A stretch of DNA of 64,000 nucleotides from Bacilli bacterium (lineage in GTDB: Bacteria > Bacillota_I > Bacilli_A > RFN20 > CAG-826), in NCBI GenBank assembly GCA_045615545.1, contig JAZLFA010000067.1, forward strand, positions 279 to 64,278, in the 5' to 3' direction. Both the position numbers and the translations under genes were made by a program. The notes below the pieces were generated by a model. The model did no database searches. It had not been told where the DNA came from and saw nothing but the letters and a program-made list of their open reading frames with translations. Shown one piece after another: positions 1 through 40,902 of this stretch. Position 1 is the first letter of the stretch. The number at the start of each line of letters is the position of its first letter.

Positions 1-40
1 GATACATTCATATGGATTAATAACTGTAGGTAAAGAACTA

Positions 41-69
41 TTGACATAATATTAATAGTTACCTACAAT
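41..69 (+). promoter_or_regulatory. Sigma70-like promoter: TTGACA (41-46), 17 bp, TACAAT (64-69). The ATG at 76 lies about 7 nt downstream, so the transcript may be leaderless
   Basis: Hexamers and 17-bp spacing read directly; no Shine-Dalgarno before ATG 76. Confidence 0.4.
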
Positions 70-420: not shown

Positions 421-1082
421 TAGAAGATAAAATCCCACTTACATTTGAAGAAGAAAAAACACTCATTAACCGCTATTTGGTTGATGAAATCTTTAACGCT
501 GCAAAAGTAGAAGGAATTCCTACTACATATCTAGATACTGAAAATTTAGTATATAACAACATTAATCCTTCGCTTGATGAATATAACTTAGCAAAACTTA
601 AAAATCTAAAAGATGCATATAAGTGTTTACTTGATGAAGAATTTTTATCTAAAGATGTATCATTAGAAACACTTTGCCATTTAAATTTAATCATTAACGG
701 AAGAGGAATAGTGGCACATCCAGGAGAGTTACGAATTGATAGTGTTTCAATCCACGGAACAACATATAAACCTCCTTTACCTGATCCATATCAAATAAAT
801 AACTACATAATTGATATGTTTAATTCCGACGTATCAAAAACTGAACTAGCACTTCATTTATATTGTTATATTATGAGAAGCCAACCATATATTGATGGAA
901 ATAAAAGAACAGGTAATTTATTTGCGAATTTTATATTGGCTAAATTTGGTCAAGGTTTGGTTAGCATCCCCTCTAACAAAAGAAAAACATTCTTTTCTTT
1001 GCTTGTGAAATATTATGAAAGTAATGATGATAGCAAATTAATTAGGTTTTTTGTTGATCATTGCCTATTCTACGCTAAATAG
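417..1082 (+). CDS. Fic/Doc (Fido) family protein with a degenerate active-site motif (QPYIDGNKRTGN instead of HPFxDGNGRxxR)
   Basis: Motif ...SQPYIDGNKRTGNLFANFIL... matches the Fic/Doc core xPFx(D)GNKR with His replaced by Gln and Phe by Tyr. Confidence 0.6.
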   Translation: MIEDKIPLTFEEEKTLINRYLVDEIFNAAKVEGIPTTYLDTENLVYNNINPSLDEYNLAKLKNLKDAYKCLLDEEFLSKDVSLETLCHLNLIINGRGIVAHPGELRIDSVSIHGTTYKPPLPDPYQINNYIIDMFNSDVSKTELALHLYCYIMRSQPYIDGNKRTGNLFANFILAKFGQGLVSIPSNKRKTFFSLLVKYYESNDDSKLIRFFVDHCLFYAK

Positions 1083-3091: not shown

Positions 3092-3571
3092 ATGAATAAA
3101 ACAATTTATGACTTCGTAATTAATGATTATTTAGGTAATCCGGTTAATTTTAACAAATTTAAAGGAAAGGTATTACTTATTGTAAATACCGCGACTAAGT
3201 GTGGATTTACCAATCAATATAATGATTTAGATGCACTATATGAAAAATATAAAAGTAAAGGATTAGAGATTTTGGATTTTCCATGTAACCAATTCTTATT
3301 TCAAGCACCAGGAACTTCTAAGGAATATCATGATGCTTGTAGGCTTAAGTTTATGGTGGATTTCTATCAATTTAATAAGATAGATGTTAATGGTAAAAAT
3401 GAACATCCTTTATATCGTTATTTAAAAGATCATAGTGACTCTAAAAGAATTAGATGGAATTTTACCAAGTTCCTCGTTGATCGAAAGGGTAATGTTAGAT
3501 ACCGCTTTGAACCAGAAAATAAACCATTATCTTTCGAAAGTACAATAGTGAAGTTACTTCAAGAAGAGTAA
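3092..3571 (+). CDS. gpx: Glutathione peroxidase
   Basis: Active-site Cys (KCGFT) and the NQF and WNFTKFL motifs. Confidence 0.85.
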   Translation: MNKTIYDFVINDYLGNPVNFNKFKGKVLLIVNTATKCGFTNQYNDLDALYEKYKSKGLEILDFPCNQFLFQAPGTSKEYHDACRLKFMVDFYQFNKIDVNGKNEHPLYRYLKDHSDSKRIRWNFTKFLVDRKGNVRYRFEPENKPLSFESTIVKLLQEE

Positions 3572-3599
3572 TATAACTAAGGCTCCTAACTTCACATTA

Positions 3600-3628
3600 G
3601 AGACTTCTAGTACTGGGAGTCTCTTTTC
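3600..3628 (+). terminator. Rho-independent terminator (GAGACT...AGTCTC hairpin followed by TTTT)
   Basis: Perfect 6-bp GC-containing stem and T-run immediately after gpx. Confidence 0.6.
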
Positions 3629-3687
3629 AATGAGAAAAAGCTATTTTTTTGATCAATAAAATATTATTAAATAAGTATAGTAAAAAT

Positions 3688-3744
3688 TTGATAAAATAAT
3701 ATCAAAAACATTGAAAATATAAGATAAAATGATATAATATTATC
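3688..3744 (+). promoter_or_regulatory. hipBA promoter (TTGAAA 3711-3716, extended -10 TGaTATAAT 3730-3738) with two palindromic candidate operators (TTGATAAAATAATATCAA 3688-3705; GATATAATATTATC 3731-3744)
   Basis: Hexamers and inverted repeats read directly; the operator role is inferred from HipB/XRE autoregulation. Confidence 0.45.
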
Positions 3745-3746
3745 AA

Positions 3747-4025
3747 ATGAACGATAAATTAGAATGGAAAACTAATAAAGAAAGGCAATTAGAGATTGCA
3801 AATCGCTTGAAGCGTCAACGTAAAGCGCTTAAACTATCACGAGAAAAATTATCCCTTTTATCAAATGTTCCTTCTCCGACAATTAGAAGATTTGAAGATA
3901 GTGGTGATATTTCCTTAGGGAGTCTTGTGGCTATTTTAGTTGCCCTAAATCATGAAGAGGACCTTTCTTTTATTGTGAGAGACATAAATTATTTAGATAT
4001 TAAGGATGCTTTCAAAAATGATTAA
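3747..4025 (+). CDS. hipB: HipB-like XRE-family HTH antitoxin
   Basis: 92 aa, HTH (LKLSREKLSLLSNVPSPTIRRFE); overlaps the downstream hipA-like gene by 20 nt. Confidence 0.7.
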   Translation: MNDKLEWKTNKERQLEIANRLKRQRKALKLSREKLSLLSNVPSPTIRRFEDSGDISLGSLVAILVALNHEEDLSFIVRDINYLDIKDAFKND

Positions 4026-5127
4026 GTATTTAGATGTATTTTTTAATAATTATTTAGTGGGCACGTTGGGCTTATTTAATAATAGAATTATTTTCTCTTA
4101 TAGCGATTCTTGGATTAAGGATGGTTTTTCTATTTCTCCTTTTTATCTTCCGTTAAAAAAAGAAACATTTACATGTAATCATAATAAGTTTAGTGGCTTA
4201 TTTGGTGTATTTAATGATTCGTATGTTGATAGTTGGGGTGAGTTACTTATAAACCGTTATCTATCTTCTAAGGGGATTAAATATAATGAATTATCCATCT
4301 TAGATAAACTCTCCATTATTGGTAATGTTACTATGGGCGGCTTGACTTACAAGCCTTCTAGCGATATAAAAATGTATCCAAATAATATTTCTTATGATGA
4401 ACTATATGAGGATATTTGCAATATTATTGAAAGCAAAAAGGCCAACAATATTGATGATTTATTTTCTCTTGGTGGTAGCTCTGGGGGTACAAGGCCAAAG
4501 ATTTTAACTAGGATTAATAATAGGGATGTAATTGTTAAGTTTAGAGCTAAAATAGATCCGCTTGATATAGCTAAAAAAGAATATCTCTATTTTAAATACG
4601 CACAAAAATTAGGTATTAATGTTCCTAATTTCGACTTAATTCATGGAAAGAAAAGTGACTATTTTGTCATAGAAAGATTTGATAAACAAGATGATATTAG
4701 AAAGTTTGTTATTTCCGCTTCTGGTCTTCTTGAGTGTGATTATAATATCCCTAGTTTAGATTATTTAGATTTATTTAAATTAACTAGTATATTGTCTATT
4801 GATGATAAAAAAGAAATATTAGAGTTATTTCGACGTATGGTGTTTAATGTCGTTTTTGAAAATATGGATGATCATGCGAAAAATTTCTCTTATATCTATA
4901 ACCCAAACAATAAACATTATGAACTTTCTCCCGCTTATGATTTGACCCCTTCAACAACTTATTTTGGCGAACACACAACTAGCGTTAATCATAAAGGTAA
5001 AGATATTCTTGATAGTGATTTACTTGCTGTTGCTACTACATATGGAATAACAAAACAAGTAGCAACTGATATAATTATTCTGGCTAGGAAATTAAAAGAA
5101 CAATATGATAGAGAAATAGATCTATAA
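4006..5127 (+). CDS. hipA: HipA-family serine/threonine kinase toxin
   Basis: HipA N-terminal domain signature, SLGGSSGGTRPKIL loop and catalytic motif ENMDDHAKNFS (D-x-H-x-KN). Confidence 0.75.
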   Translation: MLSKMIKYLDVFFNNYLVGTLGLFNNRIIFSYSDSWIKDGFSISPFYLPLKKETFTCNHNKFSGLFGVFNDSYVDSWGELLINRYLSSKGIKYNELSILDKLSIIGNVTMGGLTYKPSSDIKMYPNNISYDELYEDICNIIESKKANNIDDLFSLGGSSGGTRPKILTRINNRDVIVKFRAKIDPLDIAKKEYLYFKYAQKLGINVPNFDLIHGKKSDYFVIERFDKQDDIRKFVISASGLLECDYNIPSLDYLDLFKLTSILSIDDKKEILELFRRMVFNVVFENMDDHAKNFSYIYNPNNKHYELSPAYDLTPSTTYFGEHTTSVNHKGKDILDSDLLAVATTYGITKQVATDIIILARKLKEQYDREIDL

Positions 5128-5295
5128 ATTTCCTCTATAGTTATAATGTAAAGAATTTTTGTAATTGGTGGTTTTATATTTCTATCTATTGGAGTTGAAG
5201 CAGTTTGTAATATTGCTAATTTGGAAGTTAAAGATGGCGCGAGTATTAATTATGATCCTTTTAATCAACTTTTATAATAATAAGGGATAAATAGT

Positions 5296-6432
5296 ATGGC
5301 AAAAAAGAAAACTAAACAATATAACAAAACAAAAAAGCAAGTTAAGAAATTAGCAAAAAGTAATCCTAAAATTTTTGCTATATTTATTTGTCTACTTTTG
5401 GTAGTAGGAACAGTAGGAGGAGTTATCTATTTTCTAAATAACAATAAAGGAAATGATAAATCTTCTAGTAGTATTATCCCTGTTTCTACTGGTATATCAT
5501 TCCATTTTATGGAACTTGGTAATAAATATACTGGTGACTCGATATATATTAAAGCAGGAGAAACTGATATTTTAATTGATGCTGGTAGTAGACAATCTAG
5601 TGCCTCCGCGATTAAAAGCTATGTTAATCAATATTGCTTAGATAATAAGCTTGAATATGTTATCGCTACTCACGCGGATCAAGATCATATTTCTGGCTTT
5701 GTAGGCACTAAAAGTGAGCCAGGTATTTTTGATAGCTATAAGATAGATACATTGATTGATTTTTCTAAATCTAATAAGGATACATCTATTTATAATAGCT
5801 ATATATCATTAAGAGACTCTAAAGTCAGTAGTGGAGATATAACTAATCACTATACTGCTCAAGACTGTATAAGTGGTAATAAATCCGCGAAAAAGATCTA
5901 TACCTTAGCGGAAGGTATCACTATGGAAGTGCTTGATCAAAAATTCTATCGTGAATCAACTGGTGATGAGAATGATTATTCTGTATGTCTACTATTCACC
6001 CAAGGAAGTTCCCATTATCTATTTACTGGTGATTTAGAAAAGAAAGGTGAAGAGTCATTAATAAGCTTAAATAACTTACCAACTGTTGAATTATTTAAAG
6101 CGGGACATCATGGTAGTTATACCGCTAGTAACGATAACTTATTAAGCGTAATTAAACCTAAAGTCGTAGTGGTTACCTGTGTAGCGGGATCAACTGAATA
6201 TACTAGTGTTAAAGAAAATACATTCCCATCTCAAGCTATGATTGATAGGGTAAGTAAATATACTAGAGAGATATATGTCACCACAATGAGCAATAATACC
6301 GATAAAGGATATGAATCATTTAATGGTAATATCGTATACAGCAGTAGTGATGGTGTTACTCACATAGTTAATTGTTCAAACAATAACACCTTCTTAAAAG
6401 ATAGTGATTGGTTTAAGGCTAATCGCCATTAA
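5296..6432 (+). CDS. Membrane-anchored MBL-fold metallo-hydrolase (ComEC C-terminal-domain-like), predicted extracytoplasmic
   Basis: Basic N-terminus followed by one TM helix; HxHxDH motif (ATHADQDHISG); additional His/Asp ligands downstream. Confidence 0.65.
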   Translation: MAKKKTKQYNKTKKQVKKLAKSNPKIFAIFICLLLVVGTVGGVIYFLNNNKGNDKSSSSIIPVSTGISFHFMELGNKYTGDSIYIKAGETDILIDAGSRQSSASAIKSYVNQYCLDNKLEYVIATHADQDHISGFVGTKSEPGIFDSYKIDTLIDFSKSNKDTSIYNSYISLRDSKVSSGDITNHYTAQDCISGNKSAKKIYTLAEGITMEVLDQKFYRESTGDENDYSVCLLFTQGSSHYLFTGDLEKKGEESLISLNNLPTVELFKAGHHGSYTASNDNLLSVIKPKVVVVTCVAGSTEYTSVKENTFPSQAMIDRVSKYTREIYVTTMSNNTDKGYESFNGNIVYSSSDGVTHIVNCSNNNTFLKDSDWFKANRH

Positions 6433-6502: not shown

Positions 6503-8953
6503 TTAATCTTTAGTATGTTTCTTTTTCTTTAATAACAAAGTTAATGCTGCAGCCGATAGCGTTAATAAGCTTGCTGATGCAATAACAACAATTAATACAG
6601 TTTGATCTTCTGATTCAGATATTTTCCAACCTTTGTTAATGTTTTGTTGCAGTTTTACAGGATTTCTCCCGGCAAAATCTGTTAAAGAATATGCAGTTGC
6701 ATTCATCATGTATACATAGTCATATTTTGCTGCAAATTCGCCATACGTAGCATCAACAGCAGTTGCATTTGTTAATATTCCTTGAGCTTCGTTTGATAGC
6801 AAATCCCAGTGGAAATTAACGGTTTTACCTGCTGGTACTTCAGCTTCGCTATCGCCTAATGATTCCCAAATACCACTTAAAACATGAGAATCGCCATCAA
6901 CCTTACGTTGGCATTCACACGCAATCAATTTGTTAAATTCATTAGCGAAATTATTAGCTTCATCTTCATATCCTAAGAATATTGATACCTCGTTCCAATA
7001 TTGCCCATCATTTGAACATAGATAGAAAGTATATGTTACAGTACCTGTTTCGTTACATATTAAACCTTCTGTTTCATTATAGATCCAATTTGTTCTTGCT
7101 GAACCTACCCTTAATCTTGGAGCGTACTTACTTATTTCTGAAGAATTTTGAAAATATATTTTGAGCTTATCGCCTTTTGACATTTGGAATGTTGCTTTAT
7201 ATTCTTTGTGCTCAGATAAACCATCCCATTCAGTTCCTTTATGAAGGTCTGATTTTGCGTCTTGTCCATTAACCATGAAATAGAAACCATTGCTTGGCAT
7301 AGAAGGAACCGCTAGATGGTATTCATGTTTAGTGCTAGAAGATTCAAAATAAATATCAAATGTTTGAGAAGAAACGCCAGCTTTTGAATCGATATTAATT
7401 TGGCAATTTAGACCACTCAAAATTGTTCCCTTAAAATATGGGTGAGACCATGAAACATTAACTGTTTCTTCGCCACCTGATTCTCCATACCATTTCACAT
7501 TTCCTGAACTGTCAACGAAATAAATCTTACACTCTGCATTATTTTCAAAAGTTAAACCTTTTACAACATATTCATTTCCGTCTAGTTTATCTGGATTTTT
7601 TATTAGATTGTATTTTCCATCTCTAGTCCATCCCGCTTCTCCATAAGTTCCTGTAAAATCCCCAGCTAGATAAGTTCCACTATTTATTTGCCAATGAGCA
7701 TATAAAGTTGTGGGTTCGGTAAAATCACTGTTTTTTGCACTAGTTCCATCTGCGTTATAATACTGGGTTCCTCCAGAAGATGCTGTAAAGTAACCTAAAA
7801 ATACGCAGTTTGTTTTGATAGGAAGTTCACCGCTTTGCAATACTGGCATCGGTTGATCATATCTTGCAGTAATGTTTACTTTTTCGGATGTTCCGCCTGC
7901 AAAATTAAATGTTATTGTTACATCTTGACTGACTTCTTCCCAATAAGGATATAAGGTCTTATTGTTGTTTTCAGAAAATGCCCCTTTTAAAGCATAATCA
8001 CATGTTGTTCCGCTAGAATTTGTTGACCATCCTGATTGAATATATCCCAATCTTGTAAAAATTTTATCTTTTAACGTAATGTCAAAACCCTGGTCTTTAG
8101 TATCGCTAGCATCTGAACCAGTGCCATGTGTGCCCTTTTTATATGAAATTGTATATTGAGACAATGAGAACCTATATGACATGTTGTTAGTATCAGTTAT
8201 GTAATATGCTTTTAGAATATAGGTGTTTGGTTTTTGTACATAGGCCTTCCAATCGCCACCTTTATTAAAGTCAGCATTCTCGCTTGCCCCATGCCCAGTA
8301 TCATTGTTAACATCGTTTGCATAATGGTCTGTGCGCACGCCGTTTGAATATGCTGTAACTAAAATACCACTCCAGCTACTAGTTGTTGTAATAGTAGCTT
8401 GTTGACCATTATCAATTGATGTCATTTTTACCATATCAGGATTAGATCCTGTTACGTACCAGCCATCATCATAATATTTTGACCATGTTCCATCGCATTT
8501 TCCTCCGCCGCCTGACCATGTTGCAGTAGAAGTTGTTATTGTAAAAAAATCATTTCCAGCATTACCGTCTTTAGGTATTGTTAAGTCTTTGGTTTGTGCT
8601 CCCCAATCGCTAACCGCACCTGTGCCGCCATTAACTCTAACAAAAATTACATTTGAATAATCCTTTGGTAAATCATACTTCCAAACATTCCCGGAGACAA
8701 AAGTCATTCTAACACCAGGCCAACTAGCATTTTTATCGTCACCAGTATAACAATATGCCGCTATTGCTGCACTGTTTTCTGTCCACCAACTATATTCCAT
8801 TTTGCAATAAATTGTTGCAGGACATTCATTCACAGCTTCTGCTTTTTCCACAGCTTTATTTCCAAATGAAATTCCAGTAAGAACACCAATAGATGTTAGT
8901 AAGGAAATTCCTAGCAAAGATAATAACTTAAAATGTGATCTTTTTTTGAACAT
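6503..8953 (-). CDS. Large surface protein A (816 aa): N-terminal signal/TM, CBM25/26-like module (WPGVRMT), Flg_new (Listeria-Bacteroides) repeats, conserved C-terminal module plus TM anchor plus KKKK tail
   Basis: Signal-like N-terminus; W..WPG..M motif; repeats ending ...TLYPYW / ...TLYAHW; C-terminal SESEDQTVLIVVIASASLLTLSAAALTLLLKKKK; paralog of the 9862..12948 protein. Confidence 0.7.
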   Translation of the reverse strand: MFKKRSHFKLLSLLGISLLTSIGVLTGISFGNKAVEKAEAVNECPATIYCKMEYSWWTENSAAIAAYCYTGDDKNASWPGVRMTFVSGNVWKYDLPKDYSNVIFVRVNGGTGAVSDWGAQTKDLTIPKDGNAGNDFFTITTSTATWSGGGGKCDGTWSKYYDDGWYVTGSNPDMVKMTSIDNGQQATITTTSSWSGILVTAYSNGVRTDHYANDVNNDTGHGASENADFNKGGDWKAYVQKPNTYILKAYYITDTNNMSYRFSLSQYTISYKKGTHGTGSDASDTKDQGFDITLKDKIFTRLGYIQSGWSTNSSGTTCDYALKGAFSENNNKTLYPYWEEVSQDVTITFNFAGGTSEKVNITARYDQPMPVLQSGELPIKTNCVFLGYFTASSGGTQYYNADGTSAKNSDFTEPTTLYAHWQINSGTYLAGDFTGTYGEAGWTRDGKYNLIKNPDKLDGNEYVVKGLTFENNAECKIYFVDSSGNVKWYGESGGEETVNVSWSHPYFKGTILSGLNCQINIDSKAGVSSQTFDIYFESSSTKHEYHLAVPSMPSNGFYFMVNGQDAKSDLHKGTEWDGLSEHKEYKATFQMSKGDKLKIYFQNSSEISKYAPRLRVGSARTNWIYNETEGLICNETGTVTYTFYLCSNDGQYWNEVSIFLGYEDEANNFANEFNKLIACECQRKVDGDSHVLSGIWESLGDSEAEVPAGKTVNFHWDLLSNEAQGILTNATAVDATYGEFAAKYDYVYMMNATAYSLTDFAGRNPVKLQQNINKGWKISESEDQTVLIVVIASASLLTLSAAALTLLLKKKKHTKD

Positions 8954-8987
8954 AAAATAAATCCACCTTTTTCTATAAAATTATCGC

Positions 8988-9003
8988 CACATTATTAATG
9001 GCC
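8988..9003. repeat. IR-L, CACATTATTAATGGCC: inverted-repeat partner of 9815..9830 (14 of 16 matching)
   Basis: Reverse complement GGCCATTAATAATGTG versus GGCCATTAAAATTGTG at 9815-9830; GGCC is rare in this AT-rich sequence. Confidence 0.6.
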
Positions 9004-9021
9004 GAAAAATATGTCATTATT

Positions 9022-9050
9022 TATATATAATATATAAAGCGTACTGTCAA
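9022..9050 (-). promoter_or_regulatory. Strong sigma70-like promoter on the minus strand (TTGACA, 17 bp, TATATA) facing surface-protein gene A; lies inside the IR-bounded segment
   Basis: Reverse complement of 9045-9050 is TTGACA; 17-nt spacer; TATATA at 9022-9027. Confidence 0.5.
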
Positions 9051-9135
9051 GTGTGTATAATGTGCGTATACACATATATACTATGTATATAAAATTGATC
9101 AAAAAAAATATTCATTTTTGTAAATTCGCACAATT

Positions 9136-9750
9136 TCACGTATTGGTGGCATTTTGACTTTGTTCTTTTCTTAAGTAACGATATAAGGTGTTTGGATGCA
9201 CTCCAATTCTTCGTGCAATTTTACGAACACTCACTCCTTTTGAAAGAAGATAATGTATGCGTTTATCATGCCGTTCACAAAGCAAAGAAACGTTCTTACT
9301 CCCTTTAGGTCTACCGAGAGTTACTCCACTTTTACGTAAGCGAGATAATGCCTCTTTTGTACGCTGAGAAATAAGCTGTCTTTCAATCTCTGCACTTAAT
9401 GAAAATGCAAATGCAATAACTTTAGATTCTATATTATCTCCAAGAATAAAGTTATCTTTTATAGTGATCACTTTTACACCTTTATTCATGCAGATATTTA
9501 ATATCTCCATAATCATATAAAAACTTCGACCTAATCTAGATAGTTCACTCGCTATTAAAATATCATTTTCTTTTAGGTTTTTAAGCAATATTCCAAGCCT
9601 TCTTTTTTGATATTTTTTCTTACCACTTATAGTCTCCTCAATGTATCTTGAGATTATTAGATTGTGTACTTCACAATATCTATTAATTTCATACTTTTGA
9701 TTTTCTACTGATTGAGTGTCTGTACTCACCCTTATGTATACGTATACCAT
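9136..9750 (-). CDS. Serine site-specific recombinase, Hin/Gin invertase or resolvase family
   Basis: N-terminal MVYVYIRVSTDTQ catalytic Ser motif, SRLGRS and GRPKG motifs, C-terminal HTH (VRKIARRIGVHPNTLYRYL); 204 aa. Confidence 0.85.
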   Translation of the reverse strand: MVYVYIRVSTDTQSVENQKYEINRYCEVHNLIISRYIEETISGKKKYQKRRLGILLKNLKENDILIASELSRLGRSFYMIMEILNICMNKGVKVITIKDNFILGDNIESKVIAFAFSLSAEIERQLISQRTKEALSRLRKSGVTLGRPKGSKNVSLLCERHDKRIHYLLSKGVSVRKIARRIGVHPNTLYRYLRKEQSQNATNT

Positions 9751-9814
9751 ATATCAAATATTAATATCCTCCTAAATTGATTATAGAGAATATAAAAGGA
9801 TTCACTAAATAATT

Positions 9815-9830
9815 GGCCATTAAAATTGTG
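9815..9830. repeat. IR-R, GGCCATTAAAATTGTG: inverted-repeat partner of 8988..9003; overlaps a weak -35-like TTGGCC upstream of gene B
   Basis: See IR-L; lies 32 nt upstream of the gene B start codon. Confidence 0.6.
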
Positions 9831-9861
9831 GCAGTATTACTATCCGATTGGAGACACTATT

Positions 9862-12800
9862 ATGAAACACTTATTTTCTCGTTCAAAAACATTCGCATTA
9901 ATTGCATTATCTTTACTTACTGGTATTGGTGTTTTTAGTGGTGTGGCAGTTAGTAATGGAAATATTGAACAGGCAGAAGCTCAAGATAATGCAACAATAT
10001 ATTTCAAAGACCAATCATGGTGGAACGCAGATGGTGCTCATACCTACGTTCATTACTGGGGGGGTACTTCATCAACAACATGGCCTGGCACAAGTACAAC
10101 GGATAAAGGTAATGGTTATTGGGAAGCAACAATCCCAGCTAATTCAAGTGGTTTTCAATTTGTTAGAGTAAGTAGCTCGGGTGTCGACTGGGGTGCTAAA
10201 ACTGTTAATCTTTCTTTAGATTCTGAAGGAAAAAACCTATACACTCTTAGTAATACAGCAGTGTGGGGCGGTAATGGTGCGAGTGCTACCGCTTCGTATT
10301 ATAATAATGAATCAATAACTTATTATTTTGCAGGAAGTGAATGGGGTTGGGGTGATATTAATACTATGCCAACTTTCTCCAAAAAAGATAACATTGAATA
10401 TGAATTGTTAAATGTTGTTGTCAGAAGCGATAATGCAACTTTTAAAGGCTTCTTTACTCATGGTTGGCAGGCCGATTATATAAATCCAAATCAAACTGAA
10501 TCCGGACCTCAATCTGGTGATTATAAAATTGAGTTTGATGGTAATGCAAATGGTGTGATTAAAAAAGCTGGTACATACAATATCTATTTAACACCAAGCA
10601 ATGGAAAAATGTGGCTAAATGTTCAGAAATATGATGTTACATATAACGTCAACGGAGCTACTTCTGGTTCTAATTCAACTCAGACTGGTTTTATTGATCA
10701 AACATTTACAACAAGAGCATCGATAGGAATATCTAAAACAGGATATACATTCCAAGGTTGGAACACTAAATCTGATGGTACAGGCACAACATATGCCGCA
10801 AATACAGCAGTAAATTTAGGATTAAACGCTGGTGATTCATTAACCTTATATGCTAAATGGTCTCCAAATACTAACACACCATATACGGTTCAACATAGAT
10901 TACAAAATACAACTCGTTCTAGTTATGTAGTTGATTCCGAACGCACAGAAGAATTACTAGGCACAACAGGTGCGCAAACAAATGCGCAAGCGCTAACAAT
11001 TGAAGGTTTTACCGCTAAAACAATAACTCAACAAACAATCGCTGGAGACGGCTCAACAATCGTAAATGTTGATTATGATAGAAAACCATACACATTAACT
11101 TTTAATGCAGATGGTGGCACTTGTAGCGAATCAACAAGAACCGTTTATTATGGCTGTCAATTTGGCACTCTTCCAACACCAACAAAAACCGATGGAAGTG
11201 AATTTGGTGGATGGTATACCGGAAGTGGAGGAACTGGAACATTAATTTCTTCTTCTACCTTAGCGACTGGTAATTTGACAGTTTATGCTAAGTGGGTAGC
11301 TGCAATTATAAAACACAATGTTACACTTACTGCTGGAACTGGAATGACCGGAGCGGATCAAACAACTGAAGTTGCAGAAGGCTCAACTTTTACAATTCCT
11401 TCCACAAATCCTTTTGCCTTAAATGGTGGTTATGTTTTTAAGGAATGGACAGATGGTACTAACACATATGCACCTGGTGCCACTATTACAATGGGTACTA
11501 GTGATATAACATTAACTTCTAACGCTAGAATTCAATATGATCTAAAAATCACACATCAAGGTTCAACATCTACTATTCCGTTTACCTATGGTTCAAGTAA
11601 ATTTACTATTGCTGAAATCTCTGTTATAAAAGGAGATATCGTAGAGCTATATGATTATTCTACTAGTATAGCTGGTACAAAAGTACATGCTGGTATTGAT
11701 GGAGCGTCCGATGGTTGTTGGAGAGATAATGGCACAACCATTACTAGCGATGAAGAAAGTACACAAACATTCTCAATTGAAATAAAACCAGGTGATGAAA
11801 ATAGAGATAAGTATTTACTTACAAAATATACTGGCACAGTTGATACTGAGTATTCAGTTTATGTTGGTGGCACACGTTATGTAATGGAACAAACTGATGA
11901 TACTCCTACAGGATTTACCGCTCAATATAAAGCAACTACTTCTGGGGCACTTAAAGATGACAAAGTAACTTTTAAAAGCAACAAAGGTCAAATGGATTTT
12001 GCTGTATCTAGAGACGCTACATCAAATACCTATATTGGTGAAGATGGAAAGCAACACATAAAAGCAGGAAATGACGGTGTACTAGATATTTATCTTAAAA
12101 TTAAAGAAAACGGCGGCTCTACAACATATAGTTCATTTGTAAGTGGATTAAGATCGGAAAAATCAGGATATAGATTGATTATACGAAACAACACCGCCAA
12201 TACTGTTCGAACAGTAGATTTAGCTAATGGTACAGATAGCTCAGGTAATACACAATACGAAGCAATGAATATCCATGTTGAAAAAGACGAATATATATAC
12301 TTATATAAAAACGAAAATGATGTGGATAGAAGTTTCAGCGAAGGTGTTGTTCAACCAGATGGTTCCGTTCCTAATAGTTTTGAAAAAAGCAACGGCAATG
12401 CACTGTGTAAAACAACTGGAGATTATAATTTCTATGTAAAATCTACAGACTTCTTATGGAATGTCAACTCAATATGGATTGCAAAGGGTGGGAATCCAGA
12501 AACTGATGCAATCGCCTTTGCACAAGGTTTTAACTCCGCTATTGGAGCCGAGTGTTATGATCAGGGTGGCCATAAGGATACGCTAAAAAGTGCATGGGAT
12601 GCGCAAGCTAGTTTATTTGCTACTCTTTCCGACCAAGCAAAAGCTTATTTTAATGGTAGTTCAACATCAAGCGATACAAACATTATTAATTGTTTAGCTA
12701 AATATGATTATGTCTTCATTAAATACTGGGGGGTTTTATTTACCGAAACTTCTGATGATTTTATGGCAAGACATAGAAATTCAAATGGCGATATCAAATA

Positions 12801-12948
12801 CCCGCAAAGCGCTAATCGTAGCTGGAAAATATCTGACTCTGAAGATCAAACTATATTAATTGTTGTTATTGCTTCTGCAAGTTTATTATTGTTATCAGCT
12901 ACAGCCTTAACATTATTATTAAAGAAAAAGAAACGCTTAGATAAATAA
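9862..12948 (+). CDS. Large surface protein B (about 1028 aa): N-terminal signal/TM, CBM25/26-like module, multiple Flg_new repeats, conserved C-terminal module plus TM plus KKKKR tail; paralog of gene A
   Basis: Start moved to ATG 9862 with GGAGA RBS (ORF track 9826); WPGTSTT motif; repeats GYTFQGWNTKSDGTG...LTLYAKW and EFGGWYTGSGGTG...LTVYAKW; C-terminal SDSEDQTILIVVIASASLLLLSATALTLLLKKKK. Confidence 0.7.
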   Translation: MKHLFSRSKTFALIALSLLTGIGVFSGVAVSNGNIEQAEAQDNATIYFKDQSWWNADGAHTYVHYWGGTSSTTWPGTSTTDKGNGYWEATIPANSSGFQFVRVSSSGVDWGAKTVNLSLDSEGKNLYTLSNTAVWGGNGASATASYYNNESITYYFAGSEWGWGDINTMPTFSKKDNIEYELLNVVVRSDNATFKGFFTHGWQADYINPNQTESGPQSGDYKIEFDGNANGVIKKAGTYNIYLTPSNGKMWLNVQKYDVTYNVNGATSGSNSTQTGFIDQTFTTRASIGISKTGYTFQGWNTKSDGTGTTYAANTAVNLGLNAGDSLTLYAKWSPNTNTPYTVQHRLQNTTRSSYVVDSERTEELLGTTGAQTNAQALTIEGFTAKTITQQTIAGDGSTIVNVDYDRKPYTLTFNADGGTCSESTRTVYYGCQFGTLPTPTKTDGSEFGGWYTGSGGTGTLISSSTLATGNLTVYAKWVAAIIKHNVTLTAGTGMTGADQTTEVAEGSTFTIPSTNPFALNGGYVFKEWTDGTNTYAPGATITMGTSDITLTSNARIQYDLKITHQGSTSTIPFTYGSSKFTIAEISVIKGDIVELYDYSTSIAGTKVHAGIDGASDGCWRDNGTTITSDEESTQTFSIEIKPGDENRDKYLLTKYTGTVDTEYSVYVGGTRYVMEQTDDTPTGFTAQYKATTSGALKDDKVTFKSNKGQMDFAVSRDATSNTYIGEDGKQHIKAGNDGVLDIYLKIKENGGSTTYSSFVSGLRSEKSGYRLIIRNNTANTVRTVDLANGTDSSGNTQYEAMNIHVEKDEYIYLYKNENDVDRSFSEGVVQPDGSVPNSFEKSNGNALCKTTGDYNFYVKSTDFLWNVNSIWIAKGGNPETDAIAFAQGFNSAIGAECYDQGGHKDTLKSAWDAQASLFATLSDQAKAYFNGSSTSSDTNIINCLAKYDYVFIKYWGVLFTETSDDFMARHRNSNGDIKYPQSANRSWKISDSEDQTILIVVIASASLLLLSATALTLLLKKKKRLDK

Positions 12949-13084: not shown

Positions 13085-13267
13085 ATGCTTAAACAAATAT
13101 CAGCAATTATTGATAAAAACATGCCTTTAGTGTCTAATCTTGCTAATGTAGTAGCAATATTAAAAGATATGAAGGATATTAATTGGTGTGGTTTTTATCT
13201 TGCTAAGGATGATACTCTGTATTTAGGAAACGAGTGGGAATCCTTGGTTATTCAATTGCCGAGATGA
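13085..13267 (+). pseudogene. Truncated N-terminal fragment (60 aa) of a GAF-domain protein (YtsP/MsrC-like free methionine-R-sulfoxide reductase family)
   Basis: ...INWCGFYLAKDDTLYLGNEWE... matches the family N-terminus (about 160 aa when full length); the ORF stops right at the 18-bp direct repeat preceding the TnpB-like element. Confidence 0.5.
13246..13263 (+). repeat. Direct repeat copy 1, GGTTATTCAATTGCCGAG; copy 2 at 14737..14754 (GGTAATTCAATTGCCGAG)
   Basis: 17 of 18 identical, 1491 bp apart, bracketing the TnpB-like gene; weaker similarity continues about 20 nt further (GCGAGCAAAAGTA versus ACGACAAAAGTA). Confidence 0.7.
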
Positions 13268-13359: not shown

Positions 13360-14757
13360 ATGCTGTTAACAAAGAAATTTATTCTCAAACCAACTAGAAC
13401 TCAATGTATTATATTGGGGCATTTTACTTATGCTGCTAGCAAACTATTCAATGTTGGTAACTACGAAAGAAAAGAATATAAAAATCTTGGTTTTGATAAA
13501 GAGCCAGATTGGTATGAACAAAAGAAAAGGTTAAAGGACAATATTTGGTATAAATCTTTACCTAGTCAAACTGCTCAAGATGTCCTTAAAAATCTTGATG
13601 AAAGTTGGAAAAGTTATCATACGCTTAAATATAAATTTGACCATGGAAAGAAATTGTCTGGTGAACCAAAATCCCCTTATTATAAAAAAGATGGTAGCCA
13701 TACAAATATCACATTTTTAAGTAATGGATTTAAAGTTGTTGGAAATAAAATAAGACTAACGATTCCTAAAGCAATGAAAGAACATCTTTTAAATAAATAT
13801 GGAATACATGATAATTTTATTTATCTAAATATAAAAGAACCAATTGATGGAATGATCAAAGAAATATCTTTTTCCTATAGAAATGATGAAGAATATGATG
13901 TTTATATTAATTATGAAACATTTGTTAAACCAATTAAAAACGATAACGGAAGACATATTTCTATTGATCTAGGTATTAATAATCTAGCAACTATATATGA
14001 TAATAAGGGACATTCTTTTATTATTTCCGGCAACAGCTATTTAAACACTTTATATTATTACAATAAAAGAATATCTTATTATCAATCTATTAATGACCAA
14101 GCTCATAAAAAAGATATAGATAATAAAAATCATATTTATACAACTAATAGAATCAATAAATTATATGAGAAGAAAAATAAGATTATAAATTATATTATCC
14201 ATAAAACCACTAAAACAATCGTGGATTATTGTGTTCATAACAACATCACTAAAGTAATTATTGGTGATGTTTCTGGTATAGATAATATTAAGTCAAATAA
14301 AATAGGTAAACAAAAGAAGGAATTTAATCAAAAATTACATAGTTTACCATTTGATAAAATTTATCATTGTCTTGAATATAAATTAATAAGGAAAGGAGTA
14401 ACTTTAATAAAACAAAATGAGGCATTTACAAGTCAATGTTCTCCAACTTCAAAAGAAGTTTCTAAAGAATATGCGGACAAAAACAAACGTATCTATCGTG
14501 GACTATTTAAAAGTGGTAACGATATTTACAACGCAGATTCTGTTGGCGCTTTTAACATATTAAGAAAATATTACCAGGAGAACAATACAAGTAGAAATTT
14601 AAATTACAAATGCCTTTCTAATCCAACAAAAATAAGTATCTCTGTAACTTCTAGTCCTTATAAGGAAGAAGTAGGAGTATTGGGTGGGAACCACCCTGAT
14701 ATCTATGCACTTAAACGTGCCTTAGATTCGATGCTCGGTAATTCAATTGCCGAGTAA
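13360..14757 (+). CDS. tnpB: TnpB-like protein (IS200/IS605 OrfB / IS1341 family) with apparently degenerate RuvC-II and zinc finger
   Basis: RuvC-I HISIDLGINNLAT; TSQ motif; RuvC-III NADSVGAFNIL; RuvC-II region reads VIIGDVSGI (Glu to Gly by eye); zinc finger reads CSPT...KSGN (1 of 4 Cys kept); no tnpA nearby. Confidence 0.8.
   Translation: MLLTKKFILKPTRTQCIILGHFTYAASKLFNVGNYERKEYKNLGFDKEPDWYEQKKRLKDNIWYKSLPSQTAQDVLKNLDESWKSYHTLKYKFDHGKKLSGEPKSPYYKKDGSHTNITFLSNGFKVVGNKIRLTIPKAMKEHLLNKYGIHDNFIYLNIKEPIDGMIKEISFSYRNDEEYDVYINYETFVKPIKNDNGRHISIDLGINNLATIYDNKGHSFIISGNSYLNTLYYYNKRISYYQSINDQAHKKDIDNKNHIYTTNRINKLYEKKNKIINYIIHKTTKTIVDYCVHNNITKVIIGDVSGIDNIKSNKIGKQKKEFNQKLHSLPFDKIYHCLEYKLIRKGVTLIKQNEAFTSQCSPTSKEVSKEYADKNKRIYRGLFKSGNDIYNADSVGAFNILRKYYQENNTSRNLNYKCLSNPTKISISVTSSPYKEEVGVLGGNHPDIYALKRALDSMLGNSIAE
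14737..14754 (+). repeat. Direct repeat copy 2 (GGTAATTCAATTGCCGAG), covering the last codons of the TnpB-like ORF
   Basis: See copy 1. Confidence 0.7.
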
Positions 14758-32123: not shown

Positions 32124-32271
32124 TGATATAATAAACTTACTTCAGGGCAGCGAAAAGCGACCGGCGGTAAACCCCGCGAGCCGAAAAGGCATGAACTTGT
32201 GTGATTCAAGTGGCGACAGTAAAGTCTGGATGAAAGAAGAATATTTTTACGCCCTGATTGGGCATTTTTTT
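32124..32271 (+). ncRNA. FMN riboswitch (RFN element) with its own extended -10 promoter (TGATATAAT 32124-32132); P1 stem UCAGGGC (32142-32148) / GCCCUGA (32251-32257)
   Basis: Conserved RFN blocks GACCGGCGGUAAA, CCCGCGAGC, GAUUCA and GCGACAGUAAAGUCUGGAUGAAAGAAG; sits upstream of an ECF S-component gene as in Bacillus ypaA/ribU. Confidence 0.85.
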
Positions 32272-40567: not shown

Positions 40568-40902
40568 CATTCGATCTGGATAATTGCTGACGTAGTCAGA
40601 GGAAAGTCCATGCTCGCACAGGCTGCGATGCCTGTAGTGATTGCGCTAGCGGAAAAGATAACGCTAGGTATGTAGGAGTGCATAACGGCGACAGATAACC
40701 TAAGGGCAACTATGGTTAGAAGTCTGAAAGTGCCACAGTGACGTAGTTTATTGGAAACAATAAAGTGGAACGCGGTAAACCCCACAAGCGAGAAACCCAA
40801 ATTTGGTAGGGGAGGTCAAAAGCGAGAATTGAATCGCTAAGGCAAGCATTGCTTAGATAAATAATTATCCACGACAAAACATGGCTTACAGGATCGAATA
40901 CT
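40568..40902 (+). ncRNA. rnpB: RNase P RNA, bacterial type B
   Basis: GAGGAAAGUCCAUGCUCGCAC, GAAAGUGCCACAGUGACG, GUGGAACGCGGUAAACCCC, AGCGAGAAACCCAAAUUUGGUAGGGGA, ACAAAACAUGGCUUACAG; P1 pairs 40569-40579 with 40889-40899. Confidence 0.92.

Follow-up and report, generated by a model that had tools for sequence, protein, structure and literature searches.

We analyzed a 64-kb stretch of DNA from a Bacilli bacterium (contig JAZLFA010000067.1; hereafter the window), in which a gene for an Mpi-family small serine recombinase lies between two large surface-protein genes, here called gene A and gene B, that are transcribed away from each other. The sequence suggests, with a probability that we put at roughly 70%, that this locus is a two-state DNA-inversion switch choosing between genes A and B. 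In the proposed mechanism, the invertase would recombine two short sites in inverted orientation, site L in front of gene A and site R in front of gene B (Table 1), and the 811-bp core between them would flip, taking along the recombinase gene that it carries and the one strong promoter of the locus. With the core oriented as in the assembly, transcription from this promoter would cross site L to reach gene A, and gene B would be left without a promoter; in the flipped orientation, transcription would cross site R to reach gene B. The 5' leader would be nearly equal in length in both states (29 versus 32 nt from site to ATG), with each gene supplying its own ribosome-binding site (RBS). Inversion should yield a left junction in which GCCACATTATTAATGGCC is followed directly by AATTATTTAGTGAATCC and a right junction in which AAATAATGACATATTTTTC is followed directly by GGCCATTAAAATTGTGGCAGTATT. 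Within a clonal population, cells would thus show one or the other membrane-anchored Flg_new protein with its CBM26-like N terminus. Inversion at the window locus, the activity of the promoter, and the silence of gene B are what we infer from the sequence. A cassette that can be re-aimed between divergent paralogues had been proposed in an initial annotation of this DNA, and the proposal is now supported by a module conserved among relatives, by repeats that match within each locus, by a site pattern derived from relatives only, and by an invertible element in a sister lineage.

The product of the recombinase gene matches Pfam PF00239 (Resolvase) over residues 2 to 143 with 109 bits, and helix-turn-helix domains (HTH_7/HTH_38) were found at the C-terminal end, at residues 164 to 195. 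The NCBIfam model NF009949 (Mpi master DNA invertase) matches the full length of the protein, residues 1 to 200 on profile positions 1 to 200 of 203, with 276.6 bits, a narrow margin over the cutoff of 272. The IRVST motif contains the nucleophile serine and aligns with RVST of gamma-delta resolvase and Gin. When compared with solved structures, the protein was equally distant from gamma-delta resolvase, Tn3 resolvase, and Gin (E ~1e-10), Gin (4m6f) scoring 43 bits and thus not above the two resolvases. Because of the NF009949 match and this equal distance to resolvases and Gin, we label the enzyme Mpi-type instead of Hin/Gin-type, as it had been called in the initial annotation; its best NCBIfam equivalog is Mpi, which places it outside the Hin/Gin subfamily. 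Scores with the models for the IS607 transposase (29 bits versus a cutoff of 110), CcrA/B, and XisF were far under their cutoffs.

Genes A and B are diverged paralogues (25 to 27% identical) in divergent orientation. Their products share a signal peptide and Flg_new (Listeria-Bacteroides) repeats that score above threshold, and the C-terminal membrane anchor with its KKKK tail is almost identical in both. These features bear out the description of a recombinase gene between oppositely oriented paralogous surface genes. The same genes had been taken for CBM-like adhesins, and here only a part of the claim stands: they encode paralogous membrane-anchored surface proteins, with an N-terminal CBM26-like stretch that scores 25.8 bits in gene A and 21.6 bits in gene B, under Pfam's 28.1. 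A search of the protein database with the N-terminal domain of gene B gave no matches, and no lipobox cysteine was apparent in the N-terminal sequences of the surface proteins. Each gene has its own Shine-Dalgarno sequence. Upstream of gene B, a single promoter-like match was observed (9/12, at chance level), and no convincing promoter was found between the cassette and the gene B RBS. Neither a second recombinase nor a further surface-gene paralogue was found in the window; this and the other counts of patterns, motifs, and paralogues given below are window-wide unless stated otherwise.

The putative sites flank the recombinase gene as an inverted repeat whose arms, GCCACATTATTAATGGCC (8986-9003, plus strand) and GCCACAATTTTAATGGCC (9815-9832, minus strand), match at 16 of 18 bases. 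The repeat had been annotated as 16 bp with 14/16 matches, which holds and is here lengthened to 18 bp; all coordinates of that annotation were rechecked and found correct. Read outward from the cassette, site L (GGCCATTAATAATGTGGC) ends 32 nt before the start codon of gene A, and site R (GGCCATTAAAATTGTGGC) ends 29 nt before that of gene B. These two are the only copies of the site in the 64 kb, and they form an island of identity, the remaining 5' regions of genes A and B being unalignable. The 811-bp segment between them holds both the invertase gene and the outward promoter, as had been annotated. In this promoter, TTGACA (9050-9045) and TATATA (9027-9022) are separated by 17 nt, and the element lies downstream of the recombinase stop codon and points through site L toward gene A; transcription would be expected to start approximately 7 nt downstream of position 9022.

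To what extent such a repeat is expected by chance was estimated in several ways. With one arm sought in each of the two spacers (182 x 111 nt), 80 of 3000 dinucleotide shuffles (2.7%) gave an equal or better inverted repeat, as did 18 of 3000 placements at random genomic positions. In a larger search (400 x 500 nt), the 18-bp repeat only ties the best shuffle, and a 17/19 match scores above it, although this match is a mere reflection of the coding sequence ATIY(C/F)K common to both paralogues. In total, 61 inverted pairs of at least 12 nt occur in 1.4 kb of the locus. The presence of GGCC in the arms, which had been put forward as very rare in this DNA, is a weak argument, with 46 copies in the window versus 61 +/- 7.5 expected.

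Stronger evidence for the sites comes from related loci. We fetched contigs for the closest recombinase homologues (numbered L001 and upward; thousands of homologues exist), and in four of them, L011, L034, L001, and L010, with recombinases 73%, 71%, 73%, and 74% identical to that of the window, respectively, a common module stands in front of a large Flg_new surface gene. The module consists of TTGACA (TTGCAT in L010), 17 nt, TATAAA, approximately 18 nt, and a 16- to 17-nt site, GGMCRWTA..TGT. Altogether, five related metagenome loci have the promoter-plus-site module ahead of homologous surface genes. As seen in the alignment, the -35 hexamer and a TTTATAT..TATAAA block are conserved between the window and these four contigs. 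After the recombinase stop codon and before the -35 hexamer, a CG-containing palindrome (ATGTGTATACGCACAT on the minus strand of the window; TATACGCRYAT-like) is also kept in the window, L011 (731-750), L034, and L001, and the L011 copy was flagged as terminator-like; it may insulate the recombinase transcript from the outward transcript or bind an accessory factor.

Next, a pattern was built from the sites of L011, L001, and L034 only, with at most one mismatch allowed, and applied to the window. It matched three times, versus 0.78 expected, and two of the three matches are sites L and R, each facing its gene. As estimated from the background rate, the chance that both matches would land in those two leaders is about 1e-7. 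This bears directly on the possibility that the two arms match only by chance, in AT-rich DNA beside an unrelated recombinase. The shuffled spacers and the many inverted pairs of the locus would allow for such a match, but it becomes barely credible given that a pattern free of window sequence picks out sites L and R in the correct orientation and that both are positionally homologous to the sites of L011, L001, and L034.

In two of these relatives, the cassette is bracketed by inverted repeats much longer than those of the window, of 89 bp in L010 (85 identical) and 51 bp in L011 (45 identical). The inner edge of both repeats falls on the alignment column of the window's GG, and from there they run outward over the leader and RBS and, in L010, also over the first 14 codons of the divergent gene. 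The repeats of L010, L011, and the window are unlike between loci and matching inside each locus, as is expected because the sites must pair with each other. In L011, sites are located at 36-51 (minus strand), 805-820 (plus strand), and 3797-3812 (plus strand), the third of them preceded by a strong terminator and followed immediately by a second surface gene without a promoter, which suggests a multigene version of the switch with nested inversions. Gene A and L011 gene 1 agree almost completely over their first 36 residues, and the reciprocal best match of gene B is L011 gene 2. The two L011 genes are in tandem, whereas their window homologues lie on opposite sides of the cassette; the window layout would therefore correspond to that of L011 after an inversion between the first and third sites.

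The same repeats help to judge whether the cassette is instead a mobile element or the remnant of one, that is, an 847-bp unit similar to an insertion sequence, or a leftover transposon resolvase, inserted here by chance. Insertion sequences, too, have the form of a recombinase gene with short inverted repeats on both sides, and a TnpB element lies 3.6 kb from the cassette. Nevertheless, we consider this origin very unlikely. In the relatives, the outer parts of the repeats cover the 5' leaders of the neighboring genes as well as their first codons, and solo sites precede genes that have no recombinase, indicating that the sites belong to the genes and are not the ends of an element. Moreover, several genomes have the cassette at an equivalent place with respect to homologous genes, it is present as a single copy in the window with no target-site duplication, and the enzyme falls far short of the IS607 model and carries its helix-turn-helix at the C terminus.

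Natural inversion was observed in a sister lineage. Contigs L013, L014, and L015, from three metagenomes, carry an identical recombinase (P0011) that is 67% identical to that of the window. Over 2.5 kb, L015 and L013 differ only in a 70-bp segment, which in one has exactly the reverse-complement sequence of the other; its borders are formed by a 15-bp inverted repeat, ACACAAAAATCCACC / GGTGGATTTTTGTGT. This invertible element (inverton) spans 6233-6332 in L013, 2508-2607 in L014, and 41-140 in L015, and L014 is oriented as L013. The 70-bp segment is located in the spacer of two divergent surface genes, one of them with a bona fide CBM26 (51 bits), at 1.7 kb from the P0011 gene, and a weak promoter-like match inverts along with it. 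Since both orientations occur beside P0011, there is a natural link between enzymes of this clade and an element that is located between divergent surface genes and flips. The homologous element is oriented as in L013 in L012 and as in L015 in L027 and L029 to L031. In addition, in two contigs of separate samples, L015 and L029, exactly 55 nt (positions 1-55 in each) lie between the contig end and the invertible core, as would fit mixed orientations giving rise to a branch in a k = 55 assembly graph.

Several observations weigh against a switch at the window locus. By itself, the 18-bp repeat is short and only modestly significant, being about 1 to 3% unlikely. The outward promoter has a noncanonical -10 hexamer (TATATA, 4/6 only) and was missed by the consensus scan, because this hexamer lacks the final T; of the strong promoter that had been annotated, TTGACA-17-TATATA aimed at gene A is confirmed. 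The inverton seen flipping in the sister lineage has a different repeat sequence, and its recombinase lies outside the inverted segment. The Mpi prototype, too, acts in trans on many sites (PMC4747536). Furthermore, all three proteins of the locus are singletons, present in one assembly and on one NCBI contig.

The two mismatches between sites L and R are a further difficulty, as they sit centrally in the site, where a serine recombinase requires identical crossover bases. They raise the possibility of a former switch that is now locked with gene A on, through these mismatches (2/18, both central) or through low expression of the recombinase, and such a locked state would agree with the unusually long spacing between the RBS and start codon of the recombinase gene (approximately 17 nt) and with the strong divergence of gene B from gene A. 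However, the partner sites of L011 are also unlike at two central positions, 9 and 12, so that central differences seem to be tolerated. The recombinase open reading frame (ORF) is intact, as are the two surface genes and their RBSs, and a gene B of 1028 codons that is never expressed would be expected to decay. A locked switch therefore appears quite unlikely to us.

Finally, L001, L036, and L037 carry the module without an inverted partner on the contig (the L034 contig is too short to judge), and for this reason the site may have another role, or its partner may lie elsewhere. One such role would be that of a 5'-leader or operator motif shared by the gene family, with the recombinase acting elsewhere or as a DNA-binding regulator and with no inversion; the motifs would then look like an inverted repeat because the paralogues are divergent. 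In line with a leader motif, the partnerless sites of these three contigs stand just before the RBS of a surface gene, and the conserved site that is visible, 17 to 18 bp, has dyad-like ends in the relatives (GGACA-N7-TGTTC) and weakly so in the window, where the site copy can form a small hairpin flagged as terminator-like by the scan. On the other hand, the RNA fold of the gene A leader is unremarkable (z = -0.46), gene B and L011 gene 2 have the site without the promoter module, and in three loci the repeat has its inner edge just where the cassette ends. The enzyme, for its part, keeps the catalytic-serine motif and a full-length invertase score, and a related enzyme adjoins a proven inverton. 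Overall, we regard a shared motif without inversion as unlikely and favor the inversion switch.

The logic of the proposed window switch is, by analogy, not new, being the same as in the vpma/Xer1, Campylobacter fetus sap, and Lactobacillus acidophilus slpA/slpB systems, and it can be compared with these and with two serine invertases. In the Hin H segment of Salmonella, a serine invertase gene and an outward promoter lie inside the segment, and inversion re-aims the promoter. This system is the closest in build, since in the window, too, the invertase gene and an outward promoter (here predicted) ride inside the segment. It differs in that Hin drives an operon on one side, with a repressor handling the other flagellin, whereas the window has a paralogous gene on each side. 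Moreover, the window enzyme is of the Mpi family and no closer to Gin than to resolvases. Invertase switches of the Hin/Gin/Cin/Pin type have dyad-symmetric crossover sites of 26 bp and an enhancer bound by Fis. Hin works with short inverted sites, hix (PMC11868660). No hix-like 26-bp site is evident in the window.

Bacteroides fragilis Mpi flips promoter segments that govern surface structures (PMC4747536, PMC12632263) and acts in trans on 13 dispersed regions, outside its invertons (PMC4747536). The window recombinase is of the same protein family by NCBIfam, but its host is a low-GC member of the Bacillota and not of the Bacteroidota, and while B. fragilis turns a locus on or off, the proposed window switch would pick between two genes. 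The site consensus of B. fragilis Mpi is ARACGTWCGT, a sequence that is absent from the 64-kb window.

In Mycoplasma agalactiae, the vpma locus has one promoter and promoterless paralogues with sites in their 5' untranslated regions, and inversions by Xer1 swap the gene that stands behind the promoter (PMC2268961). The window shares with this type, which also includes M. bovis vsp and M. pulmonis vsa, a single promoter module and leader sites just before start codons, and the three-site L011 is the locus most like vpma/vsp/vsa. There, however, tyrosine recombinases (Xer1/HvsR) and lipoproteins are involved, whereas a serine recombinase is encoded here, together with proteins that carry a signal peptide and are anchored C-terminally, with no apparent lipobox. 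In the window, the promoter would also move along with the recombinase gene.

A single promoter on an invertible segment between oppositely oriented homologous surface genes was reportedly described for C. fetus sapA by Dworkin and Blaser in 1996-97. The arrangement of a single promoter between opposed homologous surface genes is thus alike. Inversion in C. fetus sap is RecA dependent and uses long conserved 5' regions, while the window has an 18-bp repeat, otherwise unalignable 5' regions, and a dedicated invertase encoded in the segment. In L. acidophilus, two opposed surface genes, slpA and slpB, are exchanged at one expression site by chromosomal inversion (PMC3666127). This host, like that of the window, belongs to the Bacilli. 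In the slpA/slpB system the promoter is fixed and a segment of approximately 6 kb with both genes inverts, unlike the inverting promoter cassette proposed for the window, and we know of no recombinase identified in the slpA/slpB segment.

Table 1. Coordinates of the features of the proposed switch in the 64-kb window
Feature	Position	Strand	Basis
Gene A, 816-aa surface protein, predicted ON	6503-8953	-	Domain, anchor, and paralogy searches
Site L (IR-L), putative recombination site	8986-9003	-	Relatives-only pattern; aligns with L011 sites
Putative invertible core, 811 bp, with recombinase gene and outward promoter	9004-9814	.	Bounded by sites L and R
Outward promoter, TTGACA-17-TATATA	9022-9050	-	Sequence reading; conserved in L011, L034, L001, and L010
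CG-containing palindrome	9060-9075	-	Conserved; between recombinase stop codon and -35
Mpi-family small serine recombinase, 204 aa, complete	9136-9750	-	NCBIfam, Pfam, alignment
Candidate promoter of recombinase gene, TTAGTG-17-TATAAT	9780-9808	-	Read from sequence; just inside site R; -35 poor
Site R (IR-R), putative recombination site	9815-9832	+	Relatives-only pattern; aligns with L011 sites
Gene B, 1028-aa paralogue of the same build, predicted OFF	9862-12948	+	Domain, anchor, and paralogy searches

The genes for RNase P class B, RNase Y, MnmG, SufB, and ArgS in the window point to a chromosomal setting, and the GC content is 32%. Gene content and GC indicate that the host is a low-GC member of the Bacillota, where the class B RNase P RNA (40572-40893) also places it; an FMN riboswitch is present at 32134-32245. 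The neighborhood of gene A (3747-6432) consists of accessory genes, with a HipA-like toxin gene at 4006-5127, a small ORF upstream of it at 3747-4025, and the gene of a secreted MBL-fold (ComEC-like) protein at 5296-6432. On the side of gene B, the TnpB gene (13360-14757) splits a GAF-domain gene, of which approximately 48 first codons are left at 13085-13267. This remnant is 56% identical to the GAF protein of L012, and the GAF gene is a syntenic neighbor of the recombinase in L012 and L013. Around TnpB, TTCAATTGCCGAG is present twice, at 13252-13264 and 14743-14755.

Scans of genome and metagenome contigs with the recombinase returned relatives only, 55 to 61% identical and mostly from Bacteroidales, and a plasmid search returned distant Mpi-like genes only. 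Among the fetched contigs, no flanking repeats were found within 3 kb of the recombinase in L001, L002, L004 to L006, L008, L009, L012, L013, L016 to L019, L027, L035, L036, or L037. The L010 and L011 contigs end inside the outer repeat arm, which was considered as proof of mixed orientations and rejected, as the distances misfit a simple k-mer branch. The recombinase P0010, found on four contigs, is from a high-GC organism and was uninformative on orientation.

Some of these contigs showed further arrangements around the recombinase. In L001, a SIR2_2-domain gene (3344-4795) overlaps the 3' end of the recombinase gene and stands between it and the promoter-plus-site module with the surface gene. 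In L035, just downstream of a 74%-identical recombinase, the N-terminal sequence of an ORF (1598-1948) resembles by eye a group II intron reverse transcriptase, and this ORF may have displaced the promoter module. In L003, a contig from Bacteroidia, a perfect 47-bp inverted repeat (18-64 / 994-1040) surrounds another Mpi-family recombinase gene. In L007, from a metagenome-assembled genome of Bacteroidales, two pairs of large ORFs (980/984 aa and 495/490 aa) diverge from either side of an Mpi-family recombinase; we read these ORFs as SusC/SusD-like, and a 266-bp inverted repeat (5914-6179 and 7111-7376; 90% identical) spans the 5' ends of both large genes. In B. fragilis, SusC/SusD inversions have been attributed to a tyrosine recombinase (PMC4747536).

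We found no literature account of a self-carried promoter cassette of the Mpi family toggling two genes, or of such switches in this bacterial group. The initial annotation had held that a locus of this form is undescribed, and this can be kept for the layout, the logic being that of the known systems compared above. Tentatively, and at somewhat less than even odds, the window could represent, with its two genes, one form of a broader and so far undescribed system of uncultured gut and rumen Bacillota with low GC, in which a self-contained traveling-promoter cassette and nested inversions serve several promoterless surface genes through 17-bp leader sites, as the three sites of L011 suggest. 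Such a system would be the serine-recombinase counterpart of mycoplasma vpma/vsa. In one survey, Bacillus-like Firmicutes had a median of 0 invertons per genome (PMC11892184).

If the proposed switch is true, the 811-bp cassette would provide a heritable and reversible choice between two large surface proteins of carbohydrate-binding type, with possible effects on how the cells attach to substrates, on their sensitivity to phages, or on immune recognition. The Mpi-family invertases would also be extended past the Bacteroidota, and from on/off control in trans to self-carried either/or switching. With its compact build, the cassette would represent a natural two-output genetic toggle. Phase variation would then occur in uncultured Bacilli-like bacteria of the gut and rumen, where inverton surveys found almost nothing.

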